From a virus: a stretch of DNA of 64,000 bases. Positions 30,901-64,000 of the stretch are shown here, in pieces. The notes under the pieces were generated by a model. The model searched no databases and was not told the DNA's origin. It was given only the letters and a program-made list of their open reading frames with translations. Position 1 is the first letter of the stretch. Each line of letters begins with the position of its first letter. The position numbers and the translations under genes were made by a program. Location of the stretch: IMG/VR virus record IMGVR_UViG_3300029858_000005. The stretch is one strand, 5' to 3'.

Positions 30901-33900
30901 TAACGTAACCATCAAGTGACTGATGACTAGTTAAGAACGTACTACCTTTAACTACGCTGATAGTAGTACCATCCTTGGTGACAGACGTAACCGCATTACC
31001 GCTACCGCTGACAGAAATAGCAGTAGCACTACCACCTTCCAAGCTGGAGATACGAGAATCAAGAGCCTTAATAGAGTAGGCAGAAGCTATCTCAGACAGC
31101 GATTCTGATGTAAGCTTCAAGGCATTTGAATAACTCTTCACACTGCCGTTCAAGCCGCCACCACCGCCCGTGGTAGATGCTCCTGCTCCGTATGCCGTGA
31201 TACCGCCTGTGGCATAGAGATTACCATCAATTTTGATAGCCTTGTTTGTGGAATCATACGTGAGCTTAATGCCATGGAAGGAGATTGTACCCTCGAATGT
31301 AGCATCGCCCGATACGCCAAGTTTAGAGAATGGAGCGTTTGGCTTCAAAGACACAAGGTCGGCAACGCTCGTTCCTGCACTTCCTTCCTTCCAAGTCGGC
31401 TCGAAGAAGATGAGGTATGCGCCAAGATTCTTTTCGCTGATGATAAACGATGTCGGGTCTGCGTGAACCTTTCCGCTCACATCCCACCAGATAGCACCAT
31501 TGGCAAGATAACCAGAGCCATCGAAGCGGATGAGGGAGGTTGCAGGGGTAAGATTTCCGCTATTATAGTCCTTATCCACCATCTGACCGCCCCACCATGT
31601 TGCGATACTCTTCTTACCTCTGTTCGGGTCTATTGCTCCGTTGATACCGCTCTGAACGTTTCCGTCTCCGTCTCTCAGCGCAAGGAGCGTTGTCATTACA
31701 AGACCACCGTCAATATCTGTAGTCTGACCGAGCGCATCCTTGAGATACTTGTAACCTGCGAGGTCTGTGATATTCTGCTTCAAGTCACCATATATCTTGC
31801 TAGTGATATAGGCGTTTGCCAAGCCAAGTTTGTCATAGAATGCGCTGTATGTGGACTGAAAGTTGGTGAACTTCGTTCCCACGGCTGAGACGATAGTAGC
31901 CTTGCCGTTTGTATCAGACGCATTGTATCTTGCTGATATATCTGAGAGATACGTAACGAGTTCCGTCTTGGCAGTCGTGAGGGTAGCAAAAGCGGTGTTG
32001 AGGTCGGTGAGTTCCTTGGTGTTCGTCAGCACCTCTGCTTCCTTCACCTCATTGTACGACTTCTGTGCTGCCGCAAAATCATCCTCAAGTCGCTTAGAAT
32101 CCTGCGCCATTGCCGCAATCTCGGAAGGCTCCAGGTAGCCATCGGTAACATAATTATCGAATTCCTTCTTGTTATCAGTGACCGTCTTTCCGAGGTTCGT
32201 AATGTCTGTCTGTGCGGTCTGTGCCGCCTTCTGAGCATTTTCTGCCGCCTTTTTGGCTGCGTTGGCAACGGTATCATCGGTGTATTTAGATGCTTTAATC
32301 CAATCACCGATGGCGAACTGAGAACCAGCCGCTTTGTTAGTCTGACAGCGCAATACCTCATTCTTGTAGGTACTGCCGTCAGAAGGATAAGTGGCATTAA
32401 CCCATATATCGCCAACCTGATAAGGTGTCGTAGGCTGAACGCTGAACACCTTCATTTTCCCGTTTGCGGTCTCCTGTGCCATTCTTGCATCGGAAAGGGC
32501 TTTGGCGATGTCGGTATCTGTAATTATAGTCCACTTATAGGTGTTGCTATCCTTGGCAAAGCGGTATGCCTTGCCCGTCTTGTTGTCGTAGTAAAGGTCG
32601 CCAAGATGGATTTCTTTATCCTTATCGGTCTTCCAACTGATGGCTGGGGCATTCTCCAAGGTAGGAACACCATCATAGAACCACGTTTCGATAGCACCAT
32701 CCACCTGATTCTGCAAGTCGGCAATCTTCTTGAAATACTGAGACAATTCCTTGCCATCCACAGTGGATTTAGCGGAAATCTTAGCCTTAACAGACATTTG
32801 CTTAGTGCTGCTATCATATCTGATATAAGAGCTGCCCTCATAGCCATTCTCCTTTGTAGGTCTATCACCTACATACATATCACCATAGACGTTGAAGAAT
32901 GCCTTGTTATTCTGCTTATTCACACCATATTCCACGTACTCCCTATTGGCAAAGGAATAGCTGTTGATGCCGTGATAGAGGCTGATGGATGGCGAATAGG
33001 TATCTACCGCCGAGAAGATAAGGCAGTTCTGACGTTCTACATCGGTTCTGTTACCGCACTGATTGAGTACATCACCTTTAGCAGGAACATCGCTTGCCGT
33101 AGCGCAATCGGTATCAGAGAGGTCGATATAATGATATTTCTTTCCTTCCAACTCTACTGGTTCCTCGTCACGACCGATTACCAATCGCCAATAGAAGTGA
33201 TTACCAGCCTTGTGATAAGTACCCTTGCGAACGTTGAATGATTCCGAGCGCACTTGGTCGTTAACCGCGAAGTCGTTATCTACCTCATCACCATCCTGCT
33301 CTGCTAAGAAATAGCAACGATAAGCCTTCTGTGACACATTATTGTATGTCACAGTAACCTCTTCTACCTTATGAGCCACCACGCCGCCAGCAGGAGAGAT
33401 TATCTCCTTACCACCGATGGTGGATGTTTTATTGATAACCAGCTCCTCGAAGATAGCCTTCATTCTTACCTCCAAGTAATCTGTGATGAGGTGCGAACGA
33501 CCTTCTGCATCGGGAGTCCACGACCCTCCACCGACAAGCAATCCCTGCAAGAACTTCTGCACCTTTTCCCAAGTGATGGTGCCGTTGGCTATGTCATCGT
33601 TTATCTTTGAGATGAAGTGCTTACTTCCCTCTGTTGCAATCTGGCCTTTGACTTGTGTAGTTGTCAAGCCTGCACCTGTTCCGCCATTTCCACTTTGGAG
33701 CGACGATATCTGCTGTTGGATCTTCTGGATAGTTCCAACCTCCTTATCCTCGCGAAGAGTTATATCGTAGGTAGGAATCTTACCATCTTCTTCCTTGATT
33801 GTGAGCTGATCTATGGATATTACACCGCCAATTCTGAGGTCAGTATCCTCAAACTCCATCAAGTCTCCGGCTTTGAGCGTATCATGAAGACTCTTGATAA

Positions 33901-36964: not shown

Positions 36965-39900
36965 TTATTTCATTTTTAAAGATTTCGTACCATTGATAAC
37001 TCTGTTGAAGTTATCGTTATACTCAATGAAAATTTTCTCGATTCTCTCTGCTGCATCTGCATTGCGCAAGGTATTCCTAGCAATAAGGTTGAGCTGCGTG
37101 AGCTGAGATTTTGAAATCTCGCTCATCTCAGGAAGGAACTTGCCCTGCATTTCCCTGATTACAGAGACATCAAGTCTAATCGCGTTAAGATAGGATGCAA
37201 AAAGATCACCTGTCTCCTCGGTAATGCCTTTTATCGAGTTGGTCAAAGAGGAACTTCCGTTTTCTCTCAAATCAAGTCCCTTTTCCTTTAGAGCATCGAA
37301 GATACCGGTTAACTGAGGAACTACATTTTCGCCAACTTGGTAGAGCTTGTCAGCAAAATCGTCCATGTCGGTCTCATCAAGTTTACCCTTTTCATCAAGG
37401 ATACCTGTAAGCCATTCGAGAGGTTTTTCAAGTGCCTTCTCCATGATTTTCTGAGATACAATATTCTTCGTAACTTCGCGAACCATTTCCTTGACCTTAT
37501 TCTTGTAAGCCTCAACCGCATCTTCCCCCTTAGTCCATGCGCTTACAACAGTATCAGTCAGCTGATTTCCCCAACTCTTCATATCGATAGAGTAAACGTC
37601 TTTAAGGAAGTCCTGTGCGAACGTCTTAATCTGCAACTGCATCTCCTTGATTTGCTGGTCGTAGTCAGCAATCTTATCCTTGTCCGTCTTTTTCTTATCC
37701 TCCTCAGCTTGTCTCTGCTTTCTCAACTCGTCTTCCTGAGCGTGGAGTAGGGCGAGCTGATCTGCGTATGCGGAAGGATTCGTCTCTGTCTTCATTACAG
37801 CGTCATAAGTCTCCTTGCTGTAGTGACTGAAGTTGTGACCTCCAAAGAAATTCTTTCCAATATCTGTCTTAGAAAAAGAATCCCAAGCCTTATAGTCATT
37901 CTTGACATCGTTGAGCTTTTTATTCGCATCGGAAGACCTATTGTAAGAATAGATTCCACCGAGTGTCTTTTCAATAACGGAACTGATATTGCTAGATAGG
38001 TTCTTCAATTCATTCAGCTGTCTCTCTGCAAGCTTTATCTGTCTGTCGAGCTTGGCATCATGAGCCTTTGCAAACGCCTTAATAGGAGAGGTAAATATGC
38101 CAGTGACACCGGCAAGGATTCCACCAACGTTGCCGGACTCCGCGCTTGTTACCACCTTTGACAGTGAACTTGACATGCCGGAGAATGTCTCGAAGAACGC
38201 AGAAGCGTCCTGCCATCCATCAGACTCAGTGTCAGCTCCGAGAAGGGAAGCAGTCTCTTTGATGTCATTGAATGCTTCACTCATTCCCTGGACATTCTGG
38301 TCGATAATACTTACTACGTTAGCAAACTTATCAAGAGACTCCTTTGCTTTTGTTCCATCCTTAAACAGAATCTCAGCAGCTTTCATCATAGCCTTTCCGC
38401 TGTCAATCATGCTGTCACCACGCTTGATGAAGTTTTCGTCTCCCATTTTGAGACCAAGTTCACGAACCTTCTTTCCTTCAGCAATTTTACTTGCTGCGAT
38501 GGTCATCTGCTCGCTGGCATCAGAAATCTTCTGCTCAGCCATTCCCTTCAGGCCACCATTGAGGAAAGTCTTCTTTGGACTCGTCAGCTTCGATAACTGC
38601 TCATCAAGCTGCTTGATTTCCTTGGCGTACTCTCTAGCATCAATGGCTCCGCTTTGTAGAGCCTCATTGATATTCTGCCTGATTCTTGCTCCGATAGTCT
38701 GAGCCTTATCCATACCGAGAGACACGATGGCTCCGTAGAAGTTGAGATAATCAGAAGAGTTCTTGAACTTGTCAAGCTTAACCTGACCAATCTCCTTGTC
38801 TCTCTGAATCTCATATCTCGCCTTGATGCCAGGATCATTCGTCTTGCTGATAAGCTCGTTGTATCTCTCCCTTATCTTCAAGATTTTATCCTCATAATCT
38901 TCTGTCTTCTCAATGATGTCGGCGGCATCTTGCAAAGACTTAACATAATTACCACGGAGGAGTTCTGTAATTTTTTTCCACTCTTCGTACTGATTTGGCT
39001 GCTTAAGCTTTTTCTCAGCTTCTCCGTCAGTCATGCTGAGAGAATCCTGAAGATTGAATATCTCATGGTAGTGAGCGTAATACTCGTCCATAAGAGATTG
39101 AGTCTTGTCATCCATCTGGAAAGCGTCAATCCATGCGGACTCAGCAAAGAACTTGCTGCCTGTCTTTTCGAGAAGACTCTTGTACAAATCCCAACGTTCT
39201 GACAGCTTGTTCATGGACTCATTGAAGTCAGCTGCCTTTCTCTCATACTCCTTCTTGTCCTTCTCGTCGAAGAGCCACTCTGCAACCTCACGATAGATGG
39301 AAGTTTGGAACTTCTTTCTCTCGGTGGTGTTTATACTGAATCCTTCAAGGAGAGAATGGACAGCCTTCTGATAGTCGTCAAGATTAAGACCGGTAACCTC
39401 CGGGAAGAGATTATAAGTCTTCTTCTTTGCCTCTTCATCAGACATTATGCTCTTGTACTTCTGATACATCTGCCTTGCAGACTTCAAGCTGCTAAGGCGT
39501 TCCTGCAAGCGTTTGAGCTCAGTATCTTCTTCGCGACCATTCTTGTTTTTACCCTTACCGAAGTGACCAGTAACCTTATTCTTTCCTACATCAAGACTTA
39601 TTCCAGACTGAGCCGCTATTGCTTCAAGCATTCGCTGCTCCCTTACGTATGGTTGCCTGTCGCCTGCATTCTTTGCATTGTCGTTCTCGTCACGGACCTC
39701 CTTATATCTCTTTCTTACAGCCTCTCCGAATGAAGTCCATCCGTTACTATTTCCTCCATTCAGATTGTGGAGATACTCGGCCATTTCCTTCTGCCAGAAA
39801 CCACCTGTTCCTCCTTTAAGCTTTCCTGCCTTTTGTAGCTTGCCGAAGACTTTTCTTTCGATAGTTCCTACTTTGTTAGGGTTCTTCCAAACTTTTGGAC

Positions 39901-42900
39901 CAGTATTGCCTTCTTGTGGCTTTGCTTTTCCTATGTTCAAAATAGCCATAGCTACGCTTTGAAGTCTCGCTACAAGACCAGGAACTTTCTTGTTCGCCTC
40001 AGATAACATTTGGTCAAGCATGGTTCTGAACTTATCCGGGTGCTGTTTGCACCACCTTGAGAACTCAACCATGTCCATATTCCTACTCTTGGCCATATAT
40101 TCGAGATATTTAGGAATATCGTCGGTAGCTATCTCGCCGAAATTCGCTCCAAAATGCCGAAGGTCGTCTTCCAAATTTTCAAGACTTCCCTTCATGTCTT
40201 TGTTTCCGTTGCTTACTTTGTCAACAAAGTGACGCCAGGTTGCAGCCCCTTTTCCGCCAGTTGTATATAGCGTGTATAGTTTTTCCTCGAATGTCATACC
40301 TGCCGCCCTTGCTCCAAGCATCGAGTTTGCCACTTTCTCCATAGAGCTTTTTGTGGAATCGCCGAATTTCTCCATCTTCATCTGGAGCTGAGCAAGGTTC
40401 CCTGCGACGTCGTTTATGTTCTCGTCAATATCGTCTTGACCGATACCAGTCCATTGGCCGAACCAACTTGCTCCACCTGCGAATCCAGCACCAGAAGCCT
40501 TCTTTGCCTTTGCGAAGTTCTCTCCTTCGCTTGGAGTGAAATTATTCTCATTCCTAGCGTCAATGATTTTCTGTTTTAAGATATCATACTCCTTGCCGAG
40601 GTCATCAGTACTATCTATCTGTTCCTTAATGGAGTCTGTATAGAGTCCGCTCTGTTTAAGGACATCAGTCATCTTGTCTACCTGTTGCTGAAGAGCCTCG
40701 CCAGTGCCTTTATTGCCAACTTCCGATAACGTATCAGATAGTGTCTTTACTGTTGTTTTTGCAGTCTCGTTTATCCTATCGGTATCCTGTTTGATGCTGT
40801 CCTTGAACTGACTATATGCCGAATACAGAGCCGTTCCTATAGTAATACCAAGTGTTGCAATATTCCATCCTGAGAAGAATCCTCCAAGCTTTCCTTTTGC
40901 CTGGTTAACAGCAAGCGACATTCTTGCCCTTGTTCCTTCTTTAGTTATAAGCTCGGACTCCTTTGCGCTTATCATACCCATAAGGCGAAGCTGTTCGATC
41001 ATCTCCTTGGATATTAGACCCTCGCGGAAAGCTTTTTGCATCTTCAACGCGCTAAGTCTTCCCTCTAGTGCAGCTTGCTCTACAGCATTTCTGGTAATAA
41101 TCTTGCTATTCAGCATTCCCTGGTAGTCAGCAATATTCTGCCTCATTATTTCCTGGGTTATCTTACCCTCAATGAGAGCTTGCTGCTGCTCTACGGCGAA
41201 AGTTCTTAGCTTTACCTGTTGTTCAGCACGCAAAGCTGCAAGGTTACTGCTTATACCAACTCTTGAAGCAATGGCTGTCGCACCCTTACGCAAAGCATAC
41301 ATAGCACCGAATGCAAGTGCTGCGTTAGAGACCTTATCCAAAGCCAAAACCAAATCTGTTGTTCTATTAATAAGGAATGAGAAAGTACCTCCGACAACAC
41401 TCTTACCTTCTGCGAACTTTCCAAGCATAATGTCCCAGGCATCAATGAGCTTATTCCATCGACCAAGCAATGTTTCGGACAGAACGAACTGCATGTTGTA
41501 GAACTGGCCTCCCTCGTCTGTCATTTTCCAAAGCACTTTCTGGACATCCTCAAAGCTAACCTGTCTAGCACTAATCATCTTCTTGACATCTGCCTGGGTA
41601 TAATTGTTCCTTCCGTTCTTTCCTTCTGAGTTATAAAGCTCAGTGATTCTCTGCAAAAGAGGAAGACCGGCGTAAGCAAACTGGCGCAACTCCTTACCAT
41701 CGAGCCAAGAACGAGCCTTTACCTGGCCGAATGCCAAGCCCAATCGTCCGAAGTCTACGCCAAGACCAGATGCAATATCCGCAAGTCGTTTTGTGGTATC
41801 ATACAAGTCATTTGCTTCGACTCCGAATGCAGCCAGCTGCTTTACATCTCGGTTCAGCTCTCCAAACTTGAATGGAGACTGCAACGCAAGCTGCTGAGTC
41901 TGAGCGAATAATTCGTCCGCCTTCTGCACATCTCCAAGGATAGAACGCAACGCAACATGCTGCTGAACAATCTCACCACCGGTCTGTACGATTGAATTAA
42001 AGAATTGCTGTGCGCCAAAGACAATACCTCCCTGTAAGAAGAGAGACTTGATGTCTCCGACTATGGATTGCATCTTCTTCGCTTCAGCGTTTGCTCCGGC
42101 GAATGCTGAAGCAAGGTCGTTTCGTGCTCTTGCAGCAGACTGAGCAATTTCCTGCTGACGCTTCTGTTCAAGCTCGATACCTTTCTGAACCTCTTGGTTT
42201 ACTGCTTTCTGATCTTGAAGAACCCTAGAAGCTAATGTGGTATCGTGGCCACTACCGATATTGCCAAGCATACCGAGGCTATCCTTCCAGTTCTCTGAAT
42301 TAAGTCTTCCCTTGATATTTATAAGGGCTCTCATTAAAGAAAGAAGTCTGTTAATCTCGGCTTCAGCTTTACTAACATCTGCTCCGACAGAAATTCCTCG
42401 GCTGTATTCAGAGCGAAGCTGGCGAACCTTATTGCCGAGAGAATCATACCGACGCTCCGTGTTCTTCAAATCATTCTGGCGTTGTCTCTCTGCCTCTTTT
42501 GCCTCGCGTGCTGCGTCCTTTATAACCTTTGCATAAGTATTTGCTTTATCTATAGCATTAAGATACCCGGAACTCTTTACGATATCAGTTGCTGTGAGTC
42601 CTGTGATAGGATGAATACCTCTGTTATTCCTGATCTGTTCTAACTCAGTTCTGTATTTAGACAGCTCTGACAACGACTGGCGTATGTTGTTCGTTGAATC
42701 GATGCCAAACAACTGTATTCCTTCACCATGGCGTTTGTTGATTTCGTCAATAATAGAAGATAACTTATAAAGTTCTCTCTCTGCCTTGTTTGCCTCAGTG
42801 GAAACACTGTTAGGGAATATGTTGAATCCAGCACCTTCCTTAGACACCTCTCCAAGTATGCGGCCTATTTTGTACAGCCCGTCCTGGACAGACTCCAACT

Positions 42901-43174
42901 GCTGGAGTTTTTTCGAACTGAAGAAATCTTCGCTTGAAAATACGCCAATGTTACGACGTAATTCTTTAACGAAGTTGTTTAGCTTTTCAAAACTACGACC
43001 TCCCTTATCTCCAATACCTTTTGTTGCTTCGGATATTGCTTCCAAAGCATTCTGTGCCTGCTTACCAGTAGAATCAACCTTGTTTAATTCTCTGATAATC
43101 TTTTTGGTTTCCTCTTCAATTCTCGATTTTAGAGTGAGCGAGAAACTGAGGTCTCCCATATTTCCACCTGCCAT
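36965..43174 (-). CDS. tail tape measure protein
   Basis: 2069 aa, largely helical/coiled-coil composition, immediately downstream of the G/GT frameshift pair. Confidence 0.85.
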   Translation of the reverse strand: MAGGNMGDLSFSLTLKSRIEEETKKIIRELNKVDSTGKQAQNALEAISEATKGIGDKGGRSFEKLNNFVKELRRNIGVFSSEDFFSSKKLQQLESVQDGLYKIGRILGEVSKEGAGFNIFPNSVSTEANKAERELYKLSSIIDEINKRHGEGIQLFGIDSTNNIRQSLSELSKYRTELEQIRNNRGIHPITGLTATDIVKSSGYLNAIDKANTYAKVIKDAAREAKEAERQRQNDLKNTERRYDSLGNKVRQLRSEYSRGISVGADVSKAEAEINRLLSLMRALINIKGRLNSENWKDSLGMLGNIGSGHDTTLASRVLQDQKAVNQEVQKGIELEQKRQQEIAQSAARARNDLASAFAGANAEAKKMQSIVGDIKSLFLQGGIVFGAQQFFNSIVQTGGEIVQQHVALRSILGDVQKADELFAQTQQLALQSPFKFGELNRDVKQLAAFGVEANDLYDTTKRLADIASGLGVDFGRLGLAFGQVKARSWLDGKELRQFAYAGLPLLQRITELYNSEGKNGRNNYTQADVKKMISARQVSFEDVQKVLWKMTDEGGQFYNMQFVLSETLLGRWNKLIDAWDIMLGKFAEGKSVVGGTFSFLINRTTDLVLALDKVSNAALAFGAMYALRKGATAIASRVGISSNLAALRAEQQVKLRTFAVEQQQALIEGKITQEIMRQNIADYQGMLNSKIITRNAVEQAALEGRLSALKMQKAFREGLISKEMIEQLRLMGMISAKESELITKEGTRARMSLAVNQAKGKLGGFFSGWNIATLGITIGTALYSAYSQFKDSIKQDTDRINETAKTTVKTLSDTLSEVGNKGTGEALQQQVDKMTDVLKQSGLYTDSIKEQIDSTDDLGKEYDILKQKIIDARNENNFTPSEGENFAKAKKASGAGFAGGASWFGQWTGIGQDDIDENINDVAGNLAQLQMKMEKFGDSTKSSMEKVANSMLGARAAGMTFEEKLYTLYTTGGKGAATWRHFVDKVSNGNKDMKGSLENLEDDLRHFGANFGEIATDDIPKYLEYMAKSRNMDMVEFSRWCKQHPDKFRTMLDQMLSEANKKVPGLVARLQSVAMAILNIGKAKPQEGNTGPKVWKNPNKVGTIERKVFGKLQKAGKLKGGTGGFWQKEMAEYLHNLNGGNSNGWTSFGEAVRKRYKEVRDENDNAKNAGDRQPYVREQRMLEAIAAQSGISLDVGKNKVTGHFGKGKNKNGREEDTELKRLQERLSSLKSARQMYQKYKSIMSDEEAKKKTYNLFPEVTGLNLDDYQKAVHSLLEGFSINTTERKKFQTSIYREVAEWLFDEKDKKEYERKAADFNESMNKLSERWDLYKSLLEKTGSKFFAESAWIDAFQMDDKTQSLMDEYYAHYHEIFNLQDSLSMTDGEAEKKLKQPNQYEEWKKITELLRGNYVKSLQDAADIIEKTEDYEDKILKIRERYNELISKTNDPGIKARYEIQRDKEIGQVKLDKFKNSSDYLNFYGAIVSLGMDKAQTIGARIRQNINEALQSGAIDAREYAKEIKQLDEQLSKLTSPKKTFLNGGLKGMAEQKISDASEQMTIAASKIAEGKKVRELGLKMGDENFIKRGDSMIDSGKAMMKAAEILFKDGTKAKESLDKFANVVSIIDQNVQGMSEAFNDIKETASLLGADTESDGWQDASAFFETFSGMSSSLSKVVTSAESGNVGGILAGVTGIFTSPIKAFAKAHDAKLDRQIKLAERQLNELKNLSSNISSVIEKTLGGIYSYNRSSDANKKLNDVKNDYKAWDSFSKTDIGKNFFGGHNFSHYSKETYDAVMKTETNPSAYADQLALLHAQEDELRKQRQAEEDKKKTDKDKIADYDQQIKEMQLQIKTFAQDFLKDVYSIDMKSWGNQLTDTVVSAWTKGEDAVEAYKNKVKEMVREVTKNIVSQKIMEKALEKPLEWLTGILDEKGKLDETDMDDFADKLYQVGENVVPQLTGIFDALKEKGLDLRENGSSSLTNSIKGITEETGDLFASYLNAIRLDVSVIREMQGKFLPEMSEISKSQLTQLNLIARNTLRNADAAERIEKIFIEYNDNFNRVINGTKSLKMK

Positions 43175-57711: not shown

Positions 57712-59274
57712 TTAATCATCAGGCTGAATGAAGCTCTCAGGCTGCTTGATGTCCTCCTCACCACGCAATTTATTCTTCACGTCATTAATGAGAACTTCCT
57801 GCTTCAGGTCAACCATCTGCGCACCGTACACCAGATACGTCATTCCGCCCTGTGACCTCTTCTTGAAGAAGCCGTACTTGTCGCTCATATCACGCCCGAA
57901 CTTCTGAATCGTAGGGATATCCTTCTCCTCGACATCGTTGGCCTTGCAGAACTCGACGAATCTCTCGTACATCTCCTTGGCAAGCATGCACTCCGAAATC
58001 TCGCCTCTCGCCTCCTGGCTGCACCTCATATCATACGCCCTTATCCAGGCATAGATAGGATTGCTTCCTAGAAGAGAGATGAGTAACTGCCTCCTGCTGC
58101 CCTCAGCTGCCGGGAACCTGTACTTCCTGCTTCTCAGCTCCATCGCGCCACGGAATATCCAGTTGAACACTCCGCTCAGCTCTTCACGGATGATCTTGCT
58201 CGCAAGCTCCGGGTCCTGCCTCTCCTTAGGAATGGTAACATCGAAGCTCACGTACTGCAAGCGTCTGATGAATCCGAGCGACGCATCGTCCGGGAACGGA
58301 AGCTCATTGAGGTTGAAGATGAGGTAGGGGATTGAGTTCCCCTCAAGGATATCCCTTCCAAGCTTCCTCATAGGGACGGGCTCACCGCTCACGAGTCTCT
58401 TAAACATACCGGTGTTCTTCCTTCCGAACTTCTTCGGGTCAGAATCGGAAGACCAGTTGAAGATGGCGTTCCTGATAGGATACCTTCCCCTCATTCCCTC
58501 GTCGCCGTCAGCAGTGAGGTCGGCGTAGTCCATCTTGCTTATCCTGTCCTTGCCGAATATGTTGCAGGCAACGTCGAAGATGACACTCTTTCCGTTGGCT
58601 CCCGTACCTATAAGGAGAAGACAGAGCTCAATCTTCGATGATTCCTTCCCCTCGTACGGATTGTATGCAGTACCTCTCTGTATGAGACCGAGACCGAGGA
58701 ACATCTGGAGGATCATCCTCGACGTCCTGTCTGGGAGGACCTCCTTGATGAAGTTCATCCACCTGTCGCACTTCGCCTTCGGATTGTAGTCGTATGGGTG
58801 GTAGTATGTGACATGGTACTCGGGAGAGAACGGCATCACGTTCGGATACTTCAGACCGCTGCCGAAGTCAACAACTCCGTTTGCGAATGCAACGATGTCG
58901 AAGGTAGGTCTCAGTATGTTGTAGCACTCTATCACCTCCATGAATGACTTGTTCATCACCGTACTGATGCCGAGCATCGGAGCCATGGCCAGGTCGAGGA
59001 GCAGAAGCTGGTAAGCCTGTTCCAAAACTATCTTCGGAACAGCTTCGTATATCTTGCCGTTGAACATGTAGTAAGCACCGTTGTAGTACTTCACCGGAGC
59101 CTTCTTCGCCAGACGTCTCATTGACCTGATGAAAGTAGACTTCAGCTTGTTGTACTTATCAGAGTTTGCCTTACCCCAGTCCTGGCAACGGAGCGCTTCG
59201 AAGCCGTACTCGTCATGCCTCAAAAGGTCTAGCAACTGAGCGTGCAATGTGTCTATAGCAATACCATTTTCCAT
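57712..59274 (-). CDS. P4/D5-type primase-helicase (D5_N + SF3 NTPase)
   Basis: 520 aa. Walker A LLIGTGANGKS and Walker B-like IFNWSSDSD. The overall architecture is typical of phage/plasmid primase P4-family C-terminal domains. Confidence 0.75.
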   Translation of the reverse strand: MENGIAIDTLHAQLLDLLRHDEYGFEALRCQDWGKANSDKYNKLKSTFIRSMRRLAKKAPVKYYNGAYYMFNGKIYEAVPKIVLEQAYQLLLLDLAMAPMLGISTVMNKSFMEVIECYNILRPTFDIVAFANGVVDFGSGLKYPNVMPFSPEYHVTYYHPYDYNPKAKCDRWMNFIKEVLPDRTSRMILQMFLGLGLIQRGTAYNPYEGKESSKIELCLLLIGTGANGKSVIFDVACNIFGKDRISKMDYADLTADGDEGMRGRYPIRNAIFNWSSDSDPKKFGRKNTGMFKRLVSGEPVPMRKLGRDILEGNSIPYLIFNLNELPFPDDASLGFIRRLQYVSFDVTIPKERQDPELASKIIREELSGVFNWIFRGAMELRSRKYRFPAAEGSRRQLLISLLGSNPIYAWIRAYDMRCSQEARGEISECMLAKEMYERFVEFCKANDVEEKDIPTIQKFGRDMSDKYGFFKKRSQGGMTYLVYGAQMVDLKQEVLINDVKNKLRGEEDIKQPESFIQPDD

Positions 59275-59401
59275 TTATGTACAATAATAATATTAATTTT
59301 CCGTTATTGTGTAGGATAAACCCCGATAAATAGGGGCTTTCTGAAGGATAACACGTGTCAGGTCGTCCTTATAACATGTCGTCTATAAAATATCGACAAT
59401 A

Positions 59402-59409
59402 CAAAGATA
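59402..59409 (-). promoter_or_regulatory. Bacteroidota-type -7 box TATCTTTG (minus strand) upstream of the primase gene
   Basis: Plus-strand CAAAGATA lies about 130 nt upstream of the start at 59274. Confidence 0.35.
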
Positions 59410-59659
59410 CAGATAATATCCTGAATATCCGGTAAAACCCTAGTAAATAAAGGGTATAAATATACATTTTAGGTATACATTAAATGAAGGATAGGTATAC
59501 ATTTATGGTTTGGTCTGCAAAGTAAGAGTTTATGCTATCAAATGTTAATAAATAACGGATGAATGAATATGCATAATTATCCTTTATGGTAGGAGGTAAT
59601 TAAACTTTACAAAAAGGCTGAAAAATCGGAAGAAAAAATTTTTAGATGAGGTGACTACC

Positions 59660-59980
59660 GCGCTGGTTTATAGCTGCAAAGGGGGTGTGGGGGTGTTTCT
59701 TCTGAAATTATTACATTTTGTGTCGGTTTATATAGTGTAAACGGGCGTGAAACAATATTTTTGTAATTATTTTAAATTGTCGGTTTATATTTATAAAAAA
59801 TTTATGTAACCCCTTAATAACCAACACTTTATAATTTTGTTTATATTCATTTTCTTGCATACTTATTCATTATCAATAAAGCGTGGAACACAAAAACTTA
59901 TTATAATACACTTGACCGAAAAAATGTTACATAATAACGTACTGGTTAAATGTTAAAATATTAACATTTAGTGTTTATAT
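59660..59980. repeat. iteron-like direct repeats (T)GT(C)GGTTTATAT; candidate replication origin
   Basis: GGTTTATA occurs at 59665, 59725 and 59782, and GTTTATA at 59839 and 59973 (spacings 60, 57, 57 and 134 nt). The region is AT-rich and lies between the divergent primase gene and the 60196 gene. Confidence 0.5.
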
Positions 59981-60102
59981 AGTTAGATATATAGAAGTAA
60001 AACGTAATATATTAAGACTTTGCCACAAAGTGTTAAAACCCATAACAACCTATATATCAATACGTTACAACGTCTTTAAAGGTCGATTTTTAACATAAAA
60101 AA

Positions 60103-60134
60103 TTTGCTTTTATCAATAAATTTTCGTACCTTTG
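60103..60134 (+). promoter_or_regulatory. complete Bacteroidota sigma-A-type promoter (-33 TTTG, 20-nt spacer, -7 TACCTTTG)
   Basis: TTTG at 60103-60106 and TACCTTTG at 60127-60134, about 60 nt upstream of the ATG at 60196. Confidence 0.6.
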
Positions 60135-60195
60135 TAGTACAAAAAGAAAGAGATAGGACACTATCTTATAAGTAACATTTAAACAATTTAGGTAT

Positions 60196-60717
60196 ATGAA
60201 AGAATTATCTGTAAAAGGTGCTCAAGGTTACGAGCACGCAAGTGCTAAGGTTGCTAGTTATGTAACCGAGTGCAAAGGTAGCGCAGTATTAGCGCAGAGT
60301 TTAGAAGTGCTCAATAGTTACCGCAAAAAGTTATTGAGTGAGTGCGCCGATAGTGAAGTAGTAAGCGCAAAGAAAGAGTTAGAAGTAGCTAGGGAACGCT
60401 ATAACAAACTAGCTACAAAGTATGTGCTTTCAGATGAAAGCTACTGCAATTTGCAAACCGAGTGCGTACGTAGCGCAGTTAGCGAGTTTTCACGCAAACA
60501 TAAACTGCCTAATTTCTTTGCGTGGTTTGATAGCAACGGCAAAGACAAACAAACTACTATAATAGATAGTTTGCAGCGTCTTGGTTCTAAATTGTGTTCT
60601 TTGCATCAATCATTTGCAAGTGGTGCAAAGGTAGCAAGGAAGAAGAGTGAAAGCATAACAGACCTACAAAAACAGATAGCAGAATTGCAGGCAAAGTTAG
60701 CAGCAGCGCAAAAGTAA
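60196..60717 (+). CDS. hypothetical coiled-coil protein
   Basis: 173-aa ORF behind a good promoter, followed by a terminator. Confidence 0.65.
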   Translation: MKELSVKGAQGYEHASAKVASYVTECKGSAVLAQSLEVLNSYRKKLLSECADSEVVSAKKELEVARERYNKLATKYVLSDESYCNLQTECVRSAVSEFSRKHKLPNFFAWFDSNGKDKQTTIIDSLQRLGSKLCSLHQSFASGAKVARKKSESITDLQKQIAELQAKLAAAQK

Positions 60718-60728
60718 CACAAACAAGG

Positions 60729-60758
60729 TAGCTAGAGAAATCTAGCTATCTAGTTTTT
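60729..60758 (+). terminator. intrinsic terminator with GAAA tetraloop
   Basis: TAGCTAGA-GAAA-TCTAGCTA (8 bp) followed by TCTAGTTTTT. A second 7-bp hairpin lies at 60763-60784. Confidence 0.65.
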
Positions 60759-60784
60759 CCTACTGGCTATCTAGTGGTAGCCAG

Positions 60785-61452
60785 TGGGATATTTCCACCG
60801 TGCGAATTACGTGCGGTGCGGGTCGTCGTACCCTTATTTTTCCTATCACGTTTAGGCGTACATTTGCAGGTCGGTGCTGCATAAGGGAACAAAACAGAGA
60901 TTTTGGTGTTATTCCAGAGAGAGAGAATTTATTCTCCCTCAGGGGATTTATTATCAAAATTTCAGAGAGCTATCCGGCAAACGAATCTGTAGTGATACAG
61001 AAAGGCGGGCGAGAAATCCCGTCGAGGGTAGCGAGAGAGCACAGAGCCACCACGATACCGAATGAGATGAGGCACGTGGAAAGAGTAAGAGCCGTAGCTG
61101 TGCAGTTGTCTAGCGAGATAACGGACGGATAAATCATAATTCATATTCTATCCCGTTGGCTGCGGGTTTAGGGATACGAGATATCCTGAAAAGCTGCGTG
61201 TTGGATGGCACGTGGAGTGGTTGCCGTTGCAGGGATTTTCCTGCACATCATATTCGCTCATAGTTTTTAAAGTGTGGGCTAGCGAATATAAAACGCACTT
61301 TCTGAAATCGGTTGCTTGTCATCCGTGCGAGATTTATCTCCTCAGAAATAAACAAGCTGCTGGCAGAAGCATAAAATCTGTAGGGTGTGAGCCACGTAGT
61401 TAAGACGATAAAGATAAAACGTGGTGCAAAGATGCACATCCTGGCTAACGGG
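60785..61452 (+). ncRNA. candidate structured non-coding RNA(s) or long structured 5' leader (family unknown)
   Basis: There is no credible ORF in ~670 nt. G+C is visibly higher than in the flanks. At least 10 stems are visible, several with G-U pairs that work only on the + strand. A TAcaTTTG -7-like box lies at 60859-60866. Confidence 0.4.
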
Positions 61453-61501
61453 GCGGGGAGAAATCTCCGCTCTACAATTACAAACCATTTATATTAGAAT
61501 T

Positions 61502-61627
61502 ATGAAACAGAGAATCAAGGAATTTTGCGATAAGTACATGTGGTTTATCTTGCCTGCTTGCAGCGTTCTAGCTATAATGCTGGGTGTTGTTTTGGAGAAG
61601 CATTTTCCACTGAGTGAAATTCTGTAG
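61502..61627 (+). CDS. 41-aa membrane peptide (cassette 1)
   Basis: ATG preceded by AAACCATTTATATTAGAATT (MKQRIKEFCDKYMWFILPACSVLAIMLGVVLEKHFPLSEIL). It is the in-frame distal part of ORF 61421..61627. Confidence 0.5.
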   Translation: MKQRIKEFCDKYMWFILPACSVLAIMLGVVLEKHFPLSEIL

Positions 61628-61677
61628 CCTAATCTCCCTACGCTTGTAGGGAACGAATAACCAAAAATATTAGAATT

Positions 61678-61812
61678 ATGAGTACGCTGAGAATTAAATG
61701 CCTCGATATGTGCGAGGTTGAGAGTATCATTGCAGATGCTCAGGAGATTTTGAGTCACGTAGAATTCGGGTCGCTAAAGAATGGTGTGCTTACATTATTC
61801 TGCGTGGCGTGA
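61678..61812 (+). CDS. 44-aa ORF (cassette 2)
   Basis: ATG preceded by AACCAAAAATATTAGAATT (MSTLRIKCLDMCEVESIIADAQEILSHVEFGSLKNGVLTLFCVA). Confidence 0.45.
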   Translation: MSTLRIKCLDMCEVESIIADAQEILSHVEFGSLKNGVLTLFCVA

Positions 61813-61830
61813 GCCTAAAAATCCGTAGCC

Positions 61831-62196
61831 AGTACGATAATTGTCGTGCGTGGCTACGGAACAATTACCAATATTTTAGAATTATGAAAGCAAGACAGAT
61901 CATTTATTCAAGTACGATAATTGTGCTTGGATTTATTCAGAGTGCGCCGGCATTCATTTGCTTGGCAAGTACGATAATTCTCCTGAATGTGCTTGGAATT
62001 CTTTACGGAATTCTGCTTGTGTATATTTGGAGCAGTACGAAAAAGGGTAAGTGGTATTTCCGTGAGCTGTGGAGATCCACACTCCGCTTGGAGAATTTCA
62101 TCCTTCCTGGAGTTTAAGAGATTTGGAAAGTACGATAATTGTGCTTGGAAACATTTAGCTAAATTCTGCTTGGAGAAATCCAGGCAGTACGATAAT
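61831..62196 (+). repeat. five copies of AGTACGATAAT(T), plus partial copies AGTACGA at 62034 and AGTACG at 61681
   Basis: Copies start at 61831, 61911, 61968, 62129 and 62186. The 21-nt AGTACGATAATTGTGCTTGGA is identical at 61911 and 62129. Confidence 0.8.
61884..62117 (+). CDS. 77-aa membrane protein (cassette 3) containing two in-frame AGTACGATAATT copies
   Basis: ATG preceded by TTACCAATATTTTAGAATT. It is the in-frame distal part of ORF 61809..62117 and has two TM segments. Confidence 0.5.
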   Translation: MKARQIIYSSTIIVLGFIQSAPAFICLASTIILLNVLGILYGILLVYIWSSTKKGKWYFRELWRSTLRLENFILPGV

Positions 62197-62219
62197 ATAA
62201 CCAATTAAATTACAGAATT

Positions 62220-62417
62220 ATGAAGAAGAATATTTTCGTGGCATTGTTTGCCGTAGTGTGTGTTGCATTGTTTGTAGTATCAATTACTCTGTATAATTGT
62301 CACAGGGCGAACGTGATGCTGAGAAAGACTGTTATCAGCCAGGCTAACGAGATTTTGAAACTAAACGGCTGTCACACAGCAGAGGGAGGTACAACGTTCG
62401 TAGGTCTCAGAAAGTAG
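62220..62417 (+). CDS. 65-aa membrane-anchored protein (cassette 4)
   Basis: ATG preceded by AACCAATTAAATTACAGAATT. N-terminal TM FVALFAVVCVALFVVSITL. Confidence 0.55.
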   Translation: MKKNIFVALFAVVCVALFVVSITLYNCHRANVMLRKTVISQANEILKLNGCHTAEGGTTFVGLRK

Positions 62418-62480
62418 CCAAAAAATGTGCTCAGGCATTTTCCTGGGCATACTATGTAAAACCATTAAACAAATTGAATT

Positions 62481-62657
62481 ATGTTAGACAGAAAATCACA
62501 GAAGAATTTTGAGCGTGCGCTTATGCATGAGATGGAGAAGATCAAGATTGCAGCGCGCCAGTGGCATAGCAACAATACTAAGGGCTACAGAGATTATCGT
62601 AGCAAGAAAACTATCTCCAAGAGTTTCTCTGAGATTGCGGTATTGTGCATGAGCTAA
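62481..62657 (+). CDS. 58-aa basic protein (cassette 5)
   Basis: ATG preceded by AAACCATTAAACAAATTGAATT (MLDRKSQKNFERALMHEMEKIKIAARQW...). Confidence 0.45.
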   Translation: MLDRKSQKNFERALMHEMEKIKIAARQWHSNNTKGYRDYRSKKTISKSFSEIAVLCMS

Positions 62658-62705
62658 ATGTGCGTGACGATTGTCACGCATACTATTCACCAATATTTAA
62701 GAATT

Positions 62706-62996
62706 ATGATAGATGAAGAATACAAGGAGAATGTAGAGTACATACTCTCTACGATTTTGCCTAAGTTGCAGGAAATCCAAAAAAAAGTATTGAAAAATCA
62801 ATCAAGACTGAGCCTTGATGTTAGCGTTAGCAATAAAAACGGCGAAGGGTATATAAGTTGTTTTGCCTGTGTCATGAATGACATGGGAGAAATAACGGAT
62901 ACTTGTTTTCCACGTTTCATCTGCGTATGCAGCAAAGAGGAGATGGACGAGCGGCTCAACGAGCTTAAAGAGTTCATCAAGAAGCACCTAACCTGA
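62706..62996 (+). CDS. 96-aa protein (cassette 6)
   Basis: ATG preceded by TCACCAATATTTAAGAATT. It is the in-frame distal part of ORF 62658..62996. Confidence 0.55.
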   Translation: MIDEEYKENVEYILSTILPKLQEIQKKVLKNQSRLSLDVSVSNKNGEGYISCFACVMNDMGEITDTCFPRFICVCSKEEMDERLNELKEFIKKHLT

Positions 62997-63045
62997 AATT
63001 GAGGGAGTTATTTCTCCCTCTCCTATAAACCAAAAATGTAGAATT

Positions 63046-63315
63046 ATGAGCAAGTGGATTCAGTTTTATCATAAGATTAACAAGTTTGACCTTGTGAACA
63101 TGAGATTTACGGATGATTTCAGTATCGTGGAAATGGTGGGCATGGATTCTGTCATGCCTATCGACGGCAGATTGAGTCTGTCATCCATACGTGATGTAGT
63201 ACAAAAGAAAATCGAGAGCATGAAGAAAATCGAGAGTTTCGACCCTTGTGCGTTCTCCATCCTCACCGGTCCTACTATTCTGTGTGCTTCAGAAAGTCCG
63301 GTGTACAATCTCTAG
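63046..63315 (+). CDS. 89-aa protein (cassette 7)
   Basis: ATG preceded by AAACCAAAAATGTAGAATT. Confidence 0.55.
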   Translation: MSKWIQFYHKINKFDLVNMRFTDDFSIVEMVGMDSVMPIDGRLSLSSIRDVVQKKIESMKKIESFDPCAFSILTGPTILCASESPVYNL

Positions 63316-63327
63316 CCAGAACTGGGC

Positions 63328-63338
63328 AGTACGATAAT
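63328..63338 (+). repeat. sixth copy of AGTACGATAAT, in the loop/arm of an intergenic hairpin
   Basis: GGCAG-TACGATAATGCG-CTGCC between cassettes 7 and 8. Confidence 0.8.
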
Positions 63339-63372
63339 GCGCTGCCTGCTATTAACCAAAACAGAATATATT

Positions 63373-63537
63373 ATGACAGCAGAAGAAAAGACTCAGCTAG
63401 AGAAGCTTGTAGAAAAGTATTTGAAAGAAGATGCGTACAAGCCACGAGGATGGGGAGAGAGAGCCGCAAGGAAGTTTCTCAGCGCATTAAATGGCGAGTG
63501 GCTTCTTACGTACAGCTTTAGACCAGATCCGGCGTAG
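63373..63537 (+). CDS. 54-aa protein (cassette 8)
   Basis: ATG preceded by TTAACCAAAACAGAATATATT, a degenerate copy of the motif. It is the in-frame distal part of ORF 63337..63537. Confidence 0.45.
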   Translation: MTAEEKTQLEKLVEKYLKEDAYKPRGWGERAARKFLSALNGEWLLTYSFRPDPA

Positions 63538-63582
63538 TTATTTGCTACGCCTCCAATTATTAACCAAATCAAAATTAGAATT

Positions 63583-63759
63583 ATGACAGACGGAGACAGA
63601 AAGTTCCTTGCCAGGCTCGTAGCGAGTCACAAGGCAGTTATCAGCGAGGAGTGCAGACGCAAGAATCTCGACAAGAGCGAGTATTTCAGACGCGTAGCGC
63701 GTGCAGACAAGAAGGCTCGGGAGATTGAGCAAGCGTGCATGAGTCCTCGCAAATTCTAG
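63583..63759 (+). CDS. 58-aa protein, possibly ribbon-helix-helix-like (cassette 9)
   Basis: ATG preceded by TTAACCAAATCAAAATTAGAATT (MTDGDRKFLARLVASHKAVISEECRRKNLDKSEYFRRVARADKKAREIEQ...). Confidence 0.45.
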   Translation: MTDGDRKFLARLVASHKAVISEECRRKNLDKSEYFRRVARADKKAREIEQACMSPRKF

Positions 63760-63820
63760 CCAAACATTCTGTGCAGTCTATCTGCACAGAAACCATGTTA
63801 AACCATAAAAATGTAGAATT

Positions 63821-64000
63821 ATGAAGAAAATTGTTAATACATTTACGAAGATTTTCGTACGAGACGGAAAGCGTCACAGAATTGTCGCTGTCGCTTCTTT
63901 AGGTGATGAGTGCAGAAATAACATCTGCACTTTCTCTATTACAGGTCAGATAGATATTTTCTGTTTCGGTTCATGGCACTGCAAAACCTGCGGTTGCATT
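63821..64000 (+). CDS. 5' part of a Cys-rich ORF running off the window (cassette 10)
   Basis: ATG preceded by TAAACCATAAAAATGTAGAATT. The frame is open for 60 codons to the window end. Confidence 0.45.
   Translation, partial: MKKIVNTFTKIFVRDGKRHRIVAVASLGDECRNNICTFSITGQIDIFCFGSWHCKTCGCI

Follow-up and report, generated by a model that had tools for sequence, protein, structure and literature searches.

A candidate large structured RNA leader with complementarity to early-gene start codons in a group of gut phages

Introduction

The stretch of DNA analysed here, termed the window, comprises 64,000 nucleotides (nt) of the IMG/VR virus record IMGVR_UViG_3300029858_000005. In it, a 173-amino-acid (aa) gene (60196..60717, + strand) is separated from an array of small + strand genes, whose first AUG lies at 61502-61504, by the gene-free interval 60718-61501. 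The question this locus raises is what such an interval does, if it does not encode a protein. A sequence-only reading of positions 60785-61452 had proposed a large structured RNA or a structured operon leader, and this proposal is supported here by strong covariation in three alignments and by the finding of no intact protein in relatives.

The interval is non-coding and conserved in position, its helices covary on the + strand, and the complementarity of one of its segments, block A5, to start codons is kept in diverged lineages. Our preferred reading, in which we place slightly more belief than doubt, is that 60718-61501 (+) is a large structured RNA of about 650 nt that acts in cis as the leader of the early small-gene operon and occludes start codons. 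From the observations we infer that the region is co-transcribed with the downstream genes, that the helix between A5 and the start codon forms in vivo, and that it represses or times translation. The complementarity between A5 and the start codons adds a concrete leader mechanism to the sequence-only reading.

Bacterial and phage RNAs longer than 400 nt with solid covariation number only a handful, and the present RNA is carried by hundreds of contigs from a phage group that is abundant in the human gut. It matches no catalogued family. The control of translation initiation in Bacteroidota is little understood, and a leader hiding an A/U-rich start context would be a concrete example of it.

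Results

A conserved interval without a conserved reading frame

Related loci, denoted below by L and a number, were collected from IMG/VR with the 173-aa protein (132 loci, 80 kept) and with the primase (265 loci, 80 kept). The gap measures 670-1062 nt in all 144 loci in which both anchors could be placed, which hold 73 distinct sequences, and a gene-free gap at the same position is present in more than 150 related phage contigs with primase identities of 56-100%. In more distant lineages, with primase identities of 89, 78, 70, 68, 67, 64, 62 and 56%, a gene of 155-203 aa is likewise followed by a gap of 695-1184 nt that holds no genes. A pattern search yielded 42 more IMG/VR copies. The RNA is also kept in L175 (66% primase identity), whose gene-free stretch extends past the end of the examined flank, while primase relatives at 59%, 57% and 66% (L182) have another gene order and no such gap within the flank examined.

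No conserved open reading frame (ORF) was found on either strand of 60718-61501 among the relatives compared. The sole sizeable ORF inside the interval starts at GTG (60800..61132, 110 aa) and is rich in arginine, as the sequence-only reading had remarked in calling the region ORF-free. With TAG or TGA read as sense, no frame opens in the region; stop-codon reassignment, an idea prompted by the tRNA array of the window, was dropped, as the region's frames stay closed. The longest ORFs vary in position, strand and length across 78 intergenic regions, and no ORF is conserved in the 144 close intergenic regions or in the more distant relatives.

Two minus-strand candidates were rejected. The ORF 61248..61439 (59-80 aa in relatives) lies in a block that is 95-98% identical and has 16 variable sites, distributed 6/4/6 over codon positions 1/2/3, and six variants have lost its ATG. 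A gene starting from the ATGs of A5, whose context TAGAATATG is like that of real starts, would have lengths of 4-91 aa that are not conserved. Hence no frame-conserved ORF with a third-position bias, as expected of a protein-coding gene, intact or recently decayed, was found. The sequence-only reading had named an intact protein in relatives as the sign of a decayed gene; when this was checked, the ORFs differed in place, strand and length. Its observation of a G+C enrichment holds as well, with 0.44-0.49 in the region against 0.39-0.42 in the flanking early region.

Covariation and the folded strand

Covariation was scored in three plain MAFFT alignments, on structures from RNAalifold or drawn by hand, with shuffled and slid alignments as controls:

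Alignment A1: 14 copies with the shorter 3' domain; 60 pairs; 95.2% paired versus 84.1 +/- 0.7 shuffled; both-side changes 25 versus 13.6 +/- 1.9.
Alignment A2: 12 copies with the commoner (L002-type) 5' domain; 49 pairs; 98.1% paired versus 92.3 +/- 0.5 shuffled; both-side changes 15 versus 3.3 +/- 1.5.
Alignment A3: 12 copies with the 5' domain type of the window, window included, structure drawn from the window; 36 pairs; 97.2% paired versus 93.8 +/- 0.4 shuffled; both-side changes 8 versus 1.6 +/- 0.9.

The observed value was reached by none of 500 shuffles in each of A1, A2 and A3, and the slid controls presented 36-49% paired in A1 and 27-49% in A3. The covariation score of A1 is 0.347, against 0.147 when shuffled. 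Some helices of L177 stand one column off in plain MAFFT alignments and were counted as broken. Long-range and nested helices covary: 60969-75/61026-32, which encloses two hairpins, 61039-44/61098-103, 61314-18/61353-57, a three-way junction, and helix P2, a pseudoknot helix that was added to A1 by eye and crosses hairpin P_a, with four of its five pairs changed on both sides.

Over the three alignments, G.U cells number 182 and A.C cells 13, and a minus-strand reading would drop to the shuffled level. This asymmetry indicates that the + strand is the folded strand. Folding energies were compared with dinucleotide shuffles. The region 60785-61452 has z values of -2.4 (+ strand) and -2.7 (- strand), from only 20 shuffles, and across part of the gap types z ranges from -0.5 to -3.1 (+ strand) and from -0.4 to -2.7 (- strand). 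For parts of the interval, values of -6.05 (60752-60850) and -3.88 (61127-61512) were obtained, and the purine-rich 60946-61130 is unremarkable, with z = -1.24 only.

Complementarity of block A5 to early start codons

The two segments on which the proposed mechanism depends are:

61131..61150, + strand: block A5, AAAUCAUAAUUCAUAUUCUA, 20 nt, A/U-rich, the only segment kept in all relatives.
61495..61505, + strand: UAGAAUUAUGA, in which the first small gene starts and with which A5 is predicted to pair.

The 13-nt core of A5 presents at most one change in all relatives, and exact matches of 16-22 nt occur at 64-89% primase identity; the block is also found in L184, L187 and L247. When IMG/VR was searched for A5 variants with a non-A last base, six chance matches in coding DNA were obtained. 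In A5, two anti-start sequences stand in tandem: UCAUAAUUC is the exact complement of GAAUUAUGA, and UCAUAUUCU is complementary to AGAAUAUGA. The helix 61134-61142 (UCAUAAUUC) : 61497-61505 (GAAUUAUGA), which includes the AUG, is present in the minimum free energy (MFE) and centroid structures of 61127-61512; of five larger contexts, the longest being 60143-61900, four have it in their MFE structures. Folding predicts it for the window and for 15 relatives, and pair probabilities summed between A5 and the first start region come to 9-14 in 13 sequences.

A complement of 9 nt to A5 is found at 7 of 11 early ORF starts versus 2 of 242 other ORF starts, and 28 of 2000 shuffled A5 sequences reach such a complement. 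Nine small genes in 61495-63823 have TAGAATTATG, with 0-1 mismatch, as their start context. In L164, L184 and L192 the first gene starts with AGAAUAUGA, to which the second half of A5 gives 9-11 complementary nt. The changes in two further lineages are more informative. Most small genes of L187 have the start context (C/U)GAUUAUGA, and A5 there has the exact complement, UCAUAAUCA, as its second half, which also matches the L187 start UGAUUAUGA. In L247, complementarity extends beyond A5: the bases on its 3' side (UCUUAAUUUU) match those on the 5' side of the start (AAAAUUAAAAGA), and the MFE structure pairs the two. In L187 and L247 alike, the long-range helix is in the MFE and centroid structures.

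These results present what is expected of a cis-acting translational operator, namely a complementary upstream segment with a helix that includes the AUG, and pairing kept in diverged relatives, with informative changes in only two lineages. They also present what is expected of a trans-acting antisense regulon, namely several targets sharing a complementary site. Given A5 is complementary to early-gene start codons, the RNA probably controls their translation. In the proposed mechanism, A5 would pair with the initiation region of the first small gene, which would close the 3' domain and bury the AUG at 61502-61504. The same block could act on other genes, because nearly all genes of the array share the start context. 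Early-gene translation would then be set by the state of the 3' domain, whether folded, bound or cleaved.

The start context TAGAATTATG is unusually uniform, and a hairpin and an A-rich spacer, for example ACAATTAC..AACC, stand ahead of each gene; the uniformity possibly reflects leaderless mRNAs or a shared regulatory site. In addition, the array (61831-63338) has six + strand copies of AGTACGATAAT, against an expectation of about one for both strands of the entire window, and the motif recurs in the early region of the distant relative L187. In the L002-type (A2 columns 167-171/193-197), an invariant upstream GAGUU can pair with AAUUC inside A5, while the type of the window is without GAGUU. 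It is possible, judging by its sequence, that GAGUU serves as an alternative partner of A5, that is, as an anti-anti-start segment in the L002-type only.

Architecture of the RNA

The RNA consists of two multi-helix domains flanking A5, a likely pseudoknot included. Its 5' part holds the following features:

60726..60761, + strand (scan match 60726-60751): terminator-like hairpin of the upstream gene, UAGCUAGA-GAAA-UCUAGCUA, followed by AGUUUUUCC.
60758..60789, + strand: 14-bp hairpin, UCCUACUGGCUAUC / GGUAGCCAGUGGGA, in the MFE and centroid structures of 60752-60850.
60796..60843, + strand: hairpins H1 (60796-60818, 9 bp) and H2 (60820-60833, GGGU/ACCC), read from the sequence and its variants.
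60865..60881, + strand: hairpin UGCAG/CUGCA, overlapping TAcaTTTG at 60859-60866.
60919..60945, + strand: block A4, hairpin GAGAGAGAA/UUCUCCCUC then AGGGGA, from RNAalifold and the conservation profile.
60964..61130, + strand: 5' domain, purine-rich with GCGAGA repeats, six helices in alignment A3 (60969-75/61026-32; 60986-91/60996-61001; 61004-09/61018-23; 61039-44/61098-103; 61050-54/61075-79; 61105-10/61117-22).

A terminator scan gave 12 terminator-like sites in 59200-62400 versus 2.1 expected. A G+C-rich hairpin with a direct U-run, as in intrinsic terminators, is found at 60726-60751 and at 60811-60832, where the U-run UUAUUUUUCC after H2 makes a second terminator-like site, and is absent at 61450-61473; terminators thus explain the first ~130 nt only. 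Processive antitermination RNAs (HK022 put-like, lambda nut-like) are short hairpin elements located between a promoter and the terminators that they override; here, the terminator-like sites stand upstream of the structured domains. The first hairpin (60726..60761) is 91-94% conserved in close relatives, and other relatives have a different hairpin and U-run there. The 14-bp hairpin still pairs in its L002 version, with A-U to G.U and U.G to C-G changes. H1 occurs in three alternative sequences, all pairing, and its seven variants all fold, with the internal G.U kept; H2 varies as AC/GU/AU, with G.U or U.G pairs kept. A reading of 60783-60845 as a tRNA-like three-way element was unsupported, as the MFE structure pairs GUGGGA with the upstream UCCUAC.

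The hairpin at 60865..60881 sits in a segment version of 72-74 nt, for which most relatives carry an alternative of 42-44 nt, and its compensatory variants are UGCGG/CCGCA in the L031 group and UGUAG/CUACA in L161. The overlapping TAcaTTTG, put forward by the sequence-only reading as a promoter, does exist, but in one of the two segment versions only and with an upstream spacing that is poor for Bacteroidota. Within A4, positions 60918-60937 are 99% identical in close relatives, and L220 has a different pairing hairpin, CCCAUG/CAUGGG, instead. The 5' domain holds 4 of the 16 copies of GCGAGA in the window; CGAGA occurs in it five times and TCTCG never, so the repeats are strand-specific. The alternative, L002-type 5' domain has equal covariation support (A2). 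Hairpins with GNRA-like GAGAAAU loops occur at 60729, 61004 and 61452, and distant relatives do not keep these loop sequences.

Just 5' of the RNA copy in L177, about 150-210 nt upstream of its GGCAAAC motif, stands a tRNA-like fold lacking a D arm, with the acceptor GCCUGUA/UACAGGC, a hairpin, and a T arm of canonical appearance, GGCGG-UUCGAUC-CCGCC. Its MFE z is -2.8 and ARAGORN makes no call on it; going by the modelled fold, it could be a processing signal.

From A5 onwards, the 3' domain at 61152-61473, with about ten helices, comprises:

61152..61297, + strand: variable subdomain, read from the sequence and MFE structure, with hairpin P_a (61152-55/61163-66), a hairpin (61172-76/61182-86), a possible pseudoknot (61157-61/61192-96), hairpin 61207-61225 (loop AGUGGUU), hairpin 61229-61244, and helix 61250-58/61281-89.
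61298..61449, + strand: conserved 3' subdomain, 95-98% identical in 54 of 73 unique close variants (alignment A1), with helices 61314-18/61353-57, 61329-32/61337-40 and 61358-61/61368-71.
61381-83/61441-43, 61384-89/61435-40 and 61391-97/61419-25, + strand: three-way junction (A1).
61450..61473, + strand: terminal hairpin of 10 bp, loop GAAA; CUCUACAAUUAC comes next, and no U-run.

In the shorter version of the variable subdomain, carried by 14 relatives, P_a, P_b and the pseudoknot helix P2 covary. The assignment in the window's own 61152-61297 is made by analogy with this shorter version only; the loop motif AGUGGUU of hairpin 61207-61225 is kept across types. The terminal hairpin always pairs despite a different sequence in L163, L164, L175, L177, L184, L192, L220, L187 and L247, and close variants present a G.U to U-A double change in it. 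Given it is followed by no U-run, nothing like an intrinsic terminator stands between the RNA and the first gene. A similar hairpin and spacer are also found ahead of the next small genes.

The stems listed by eye in the sequence-only reading fared differently. Those at 60796-60818, 60865-60881, 61004-61023 and 61391-61397/61419-61425 are present and have compensatory changes in relatives. The stems at 61207-61225, 61229-61244 and 61250-61258/61281-61289 are found in the sequence and in the MFE structure, but are specific to the segment variant of the window. Comparison lent no support to 61149-61154/61171-61176 and 61293-61297/61325-61329; the local hairpins 61152-61166 and 61172-61186, already noted as competing with the former, are the conserved alternative. 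Nor did it support 61424-61437, which competes with the covarying helix 61384-61389/61435-61440. The repeat of GGCACGTGGA at 61071 and 61207 was found again, and two of the seven CACGTG copies in the window lie in the region.

Comparison with known RNAs and regulatory systems

With Rfam 15 at the gathering threshold, the whole window yielded only three tRNAs, at 1280-2854; in 60600-61700 at E <= 10 there were two chance hits, with E values of 5.9 and 7.4. Nine relatives gave no match, and the families tested included ROOL, GOLLD, OLE, raiA, HEARO, riboswitches, T-box, RNase P, 6S and group I/II introns. ARAGORN called neither a tRNA nor a tmRNA within positions 60000-62000, and none in 11 related loci either. 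The sequence-only reading recognised no family, in agreement with these searches, and similarity to any known family of phage non-coding RNAs (ncRNAs) is unsupported, the Rfam models of ROOL and GOLLD included. No description of a two-domain RNA of ~650 nt or of an anti-start block was found in the literature.

ROOL and GOLLD, first described by comparative genomics (PMC5737381), are large ornate RNAs, often found in phages and prophages, and cryo-EM shows that they form RNA-only multimeric assemblies (PMC12286853). Like them, the present RNA is several hundred nt long and phage-borne, has many covarying helices, a pseudoknot and GNRA loops, is associated with no conserved ORF, and has a function that is not evident from its sequence. 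It shares no detectable sequence or model similarity with them, the ROOL and GOLLD models matching neither the window nor nine relatives. ROOL and GOLLD usually lie near tRNA genes, whereas the present RNA has a fixed place between an early gene and the small-gene array. It further differs from them in that an invariant single-stranded block is complementary to start codons lying downstream, a feature that suggests a cis-regulatory role and allows a direct mutate-and-compensate test on a defined gene set.

Start sites are occluded by RNA structure in the expression platforms of translational riboswitches, in RNA thermometers, and in the long-range pairings of MS2-type single-stranded RNA phages. 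As in these systems, a segment upstream in the same RNA is complementary to the initiation region, and the predicted helix holds the AUG. Unlike in these systems, the anti-start block lies ~360 nt from the start with a conserved multi-helix domain between, the start context is repeated on at least seven genes, and there is no recognisable ligand-binding aptamer. To our knowledge, Bacteroidota mRNAs lack a Shine-Dalgarno interaction, so the occluded element would be the A/U-rich start context itself.

The T4 proteins RegA and RegB shut off many early mRNAs through a motif shared at their initiation regions. The present early gene family likewise has a short shared start-site motif, which would permit coordinated post-transcriptional control; the candidate regulator is a base-pairing RNA segment and not a protein, so the analogy is functional only.

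Similar to the structured-RNA catalogues of IMG/VR phages and human microbiomes (PMC10690425, PMC8040213), this work deals with IMG/VR gut phage contigs and with covariation evidence. The motifs of the IMG/VR catalogue average 67 nt (PMC10690425). The catalogues, compared by description only, may hold individual hairpins or fragments of the present RNA.

Alternative explanations

A number of points weigh against a cis-acting leader that hides start codons. Two terminator-like hairpins stand between the promoter at 60103-60134 and the structured region, and the TAcaTTTG at 60859 lacks conservation. The duplex of A5 with the start is short and rich in A/U, and at -9.9 kcal/mol it ranks in about the top 5% of all ORF starts; in the context 60846-61520, A5 folds with another partner. 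Given A5 is nearly invariant, true covariation with the start region comes from L187 and L247 only, and a DNA-binding protein or a promoter-like motif in both orientations would give the same co-variation. The pair scores are inflated, because the sequences scored are related to one another and also served to derive the structures; the form of 61152-61297 that the window carries stands outside the covariation tests. Finally, ~600 nt of elaborate modular structure is unexplained if the job of the RNA is to hide a start codon.

The RNA could instead be a free-standing, trans-acting large ncRNA, made or processed apart from the downstream mRNA and serving as a ROOL/GOLLD-like scaffold or cage, as a host-defence decoy, or as an antisense RNA that silences the early regulon via A5. 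This is a possibility that we take seriously and hold only tentatively. Its size, two domains, pseudoknot and GNRA loops are typical of ornate stand-alone RNAs, a complementary start motif on 7 of 11 early ORFs suits many targets better than one, the exchange of helices and modules among phages with 98-100% identical primases is the pattern expected of a specificity determinant, and the tRNA-like fold of L177 could be a processing signal. However, no conserved promoter was found in 60845-60960, there is no terminator after 61473, no Rfam family matches, and in every lineage A5 is predicted to pair with the start codon closest to it in cis. One form of this idea, which we consider unlikely, is that of a stable trans-acting master regulator, the RNA counterpart of T4 RegA, in which the tandem anti-start block would titrate or silence all early small-gene mRNAs and the exchangeable helices would give each co-circulating variant its own specificity, as in superinfection exclusion or in evading host RNA-targeting defence. 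If true, this would add a new functional class to the large phage RNAs and, for a host phylum without Shine-Dalgarno pairing, a new means of coordinated translation.

It is improbable, in our estimate, that there is no global RNA, and that tandem terminators or attenuators, cassette-boundary hairpins, and DNA-level protein sites, such as the GCGAGA repeats and the A5 motif, have merely gathered in a recombination-prone early region. The two U-run hairpins at the 5' end, the excess of terminator-like sites in 59200-62400 (12 versus 2.1 expected), the resemblance of the terminal hairpin to those ahead of each small gene, the mosaic module exchange with a small ORF cassette in L014 and L032, and the 5' domain MFE z of only -1.24 would all suit such a string of local elements, and a protein reading its motif in both orientations would also explain the co-variation in L187. 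Yet nested and long-range helices covary, not only local hairpins; the excess of G.U over A.C favours RNA over duplex DNA sites; and the repeats are strand-specific, with CGAGA five times and TCTCG never. Least credible of all, and very improbable, is that the region is a coding sequence that has decayed or been mis-called, or that it works at the DNA level, for instance as a replication origin or packaging site. The region lies 600 nt from the AT-rich repeat stretch with a GC-skew turn (59300-60150) by the primase gene, and short ORFs occur in some variants, such as one of 33 aa in the L006 type. On the other hand, no ORF is conserved in position, frame or length, the best candidate has a flat 6/4/6 codon-position pattern and a lost start codon, and stop-codon reassignment is of no help. 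Compensatory substitutions and the G.U asymmetry are not expected of an origin, and the likely origin is the separate AT-rich region.

Mosaicism and host

The primase is 98-100% identical among 80 related contigs, yet their gap is a mosaic of about 14 types, and the adjacent 173-aa gene has ~80-94% DNA identity among them. In the gap, blocks conserved at 90-99% interleave with blocks where whole hairpins are swapped for unrelated, still-pairing sequence. The comparison of 57712-59274 with 60196-61500 marks the early region, at the sequence level, as a local hot spot of recombination or diversification. This natural exchange of whole helices among near-identical phages provides ready variants for structure-function work. 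In L014 and L032, an extra small-ORF cassette is inserted in the gap after the first hairpin, and in the type of L006, L023 and L038 the block corresponding to 61298-61449 of the window is replaced by a segment with a protein-like ORF of 33 aa (MNGDGSEATEIKTLAADFNQACERVDYLKRRCTE). These cassettes and the L006-type swap show that no fixed boundary divides RNA modules from small-gene cassettes.

When species-representative genomes were scanned, copies of the element turned up in records of Segatella copri, one of them a complete chromosome, in Prevotella records and in one bin of Barnesiella. The phage region including the RNA is held by L235 (NZ_CP152484.1, Segatella copri HDD04 chromosome), L234, L240, L242 and L239, the contigs of metagenome-assembled genomes being assigned to S. 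copri, Prevotella and Barnesiella. The phage in S. copri records may be a prophage, or may have been co-assembled. The host is probably Segatella/Prevotella, and the presence of the element inside S. copri genome records means a host can probably be found. The closest GenBank phages have only 27% primase identity, and BLAST of the region against 50,697 GenBank phage records gave no match. The phage is of a common gut type (Prevotella/Bacteroides-type).

Other features of the window

The Bacteroides promoter consensus is TTTG / TAnnTTTG. The promoter and the features around it are:

60103-60134, + strand: promoter of Bacteroidota-type consensus read from the sequence, TTTG at 60103-60106, a 20-nt spacer, and TAccTTTG at 60127-60134, with putative function.
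59300-60150: AT-rich stretch (G+C 0.25-0.31) with the cumulative GC-skew minimum, between the divergent primase and early genes; direct repeats TAGGTATACATT, twice (~59470-59505), and TGTCGGTTTATAT, twice (~59722-59795).
57712-59274: primase gene, upstream of the interval beyond the AT-rich stretch and divergently transcribed.
1280-2855: tRNA array, six genes by ARAGORN (Arg-CCU, Ser-ACU, Met, Pro-AGG, Ile-GAU, and one, 2596-2669, with an uninterpretable anticodon call), of which Rfam calls three.

The promoter precedes the 173-aa gene and is the only good match upstream of the RNA. The AT-rich stretch is likely the replication origin. PHROGs and Pfam, applied to the neighbouring proteins, gave names only for the primase, terminase, portal and major head proteins. 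The window further holds two giant minus-strand ORFs, 27995-35872 (2625 aa) and 36965-43174 (2069 aa).

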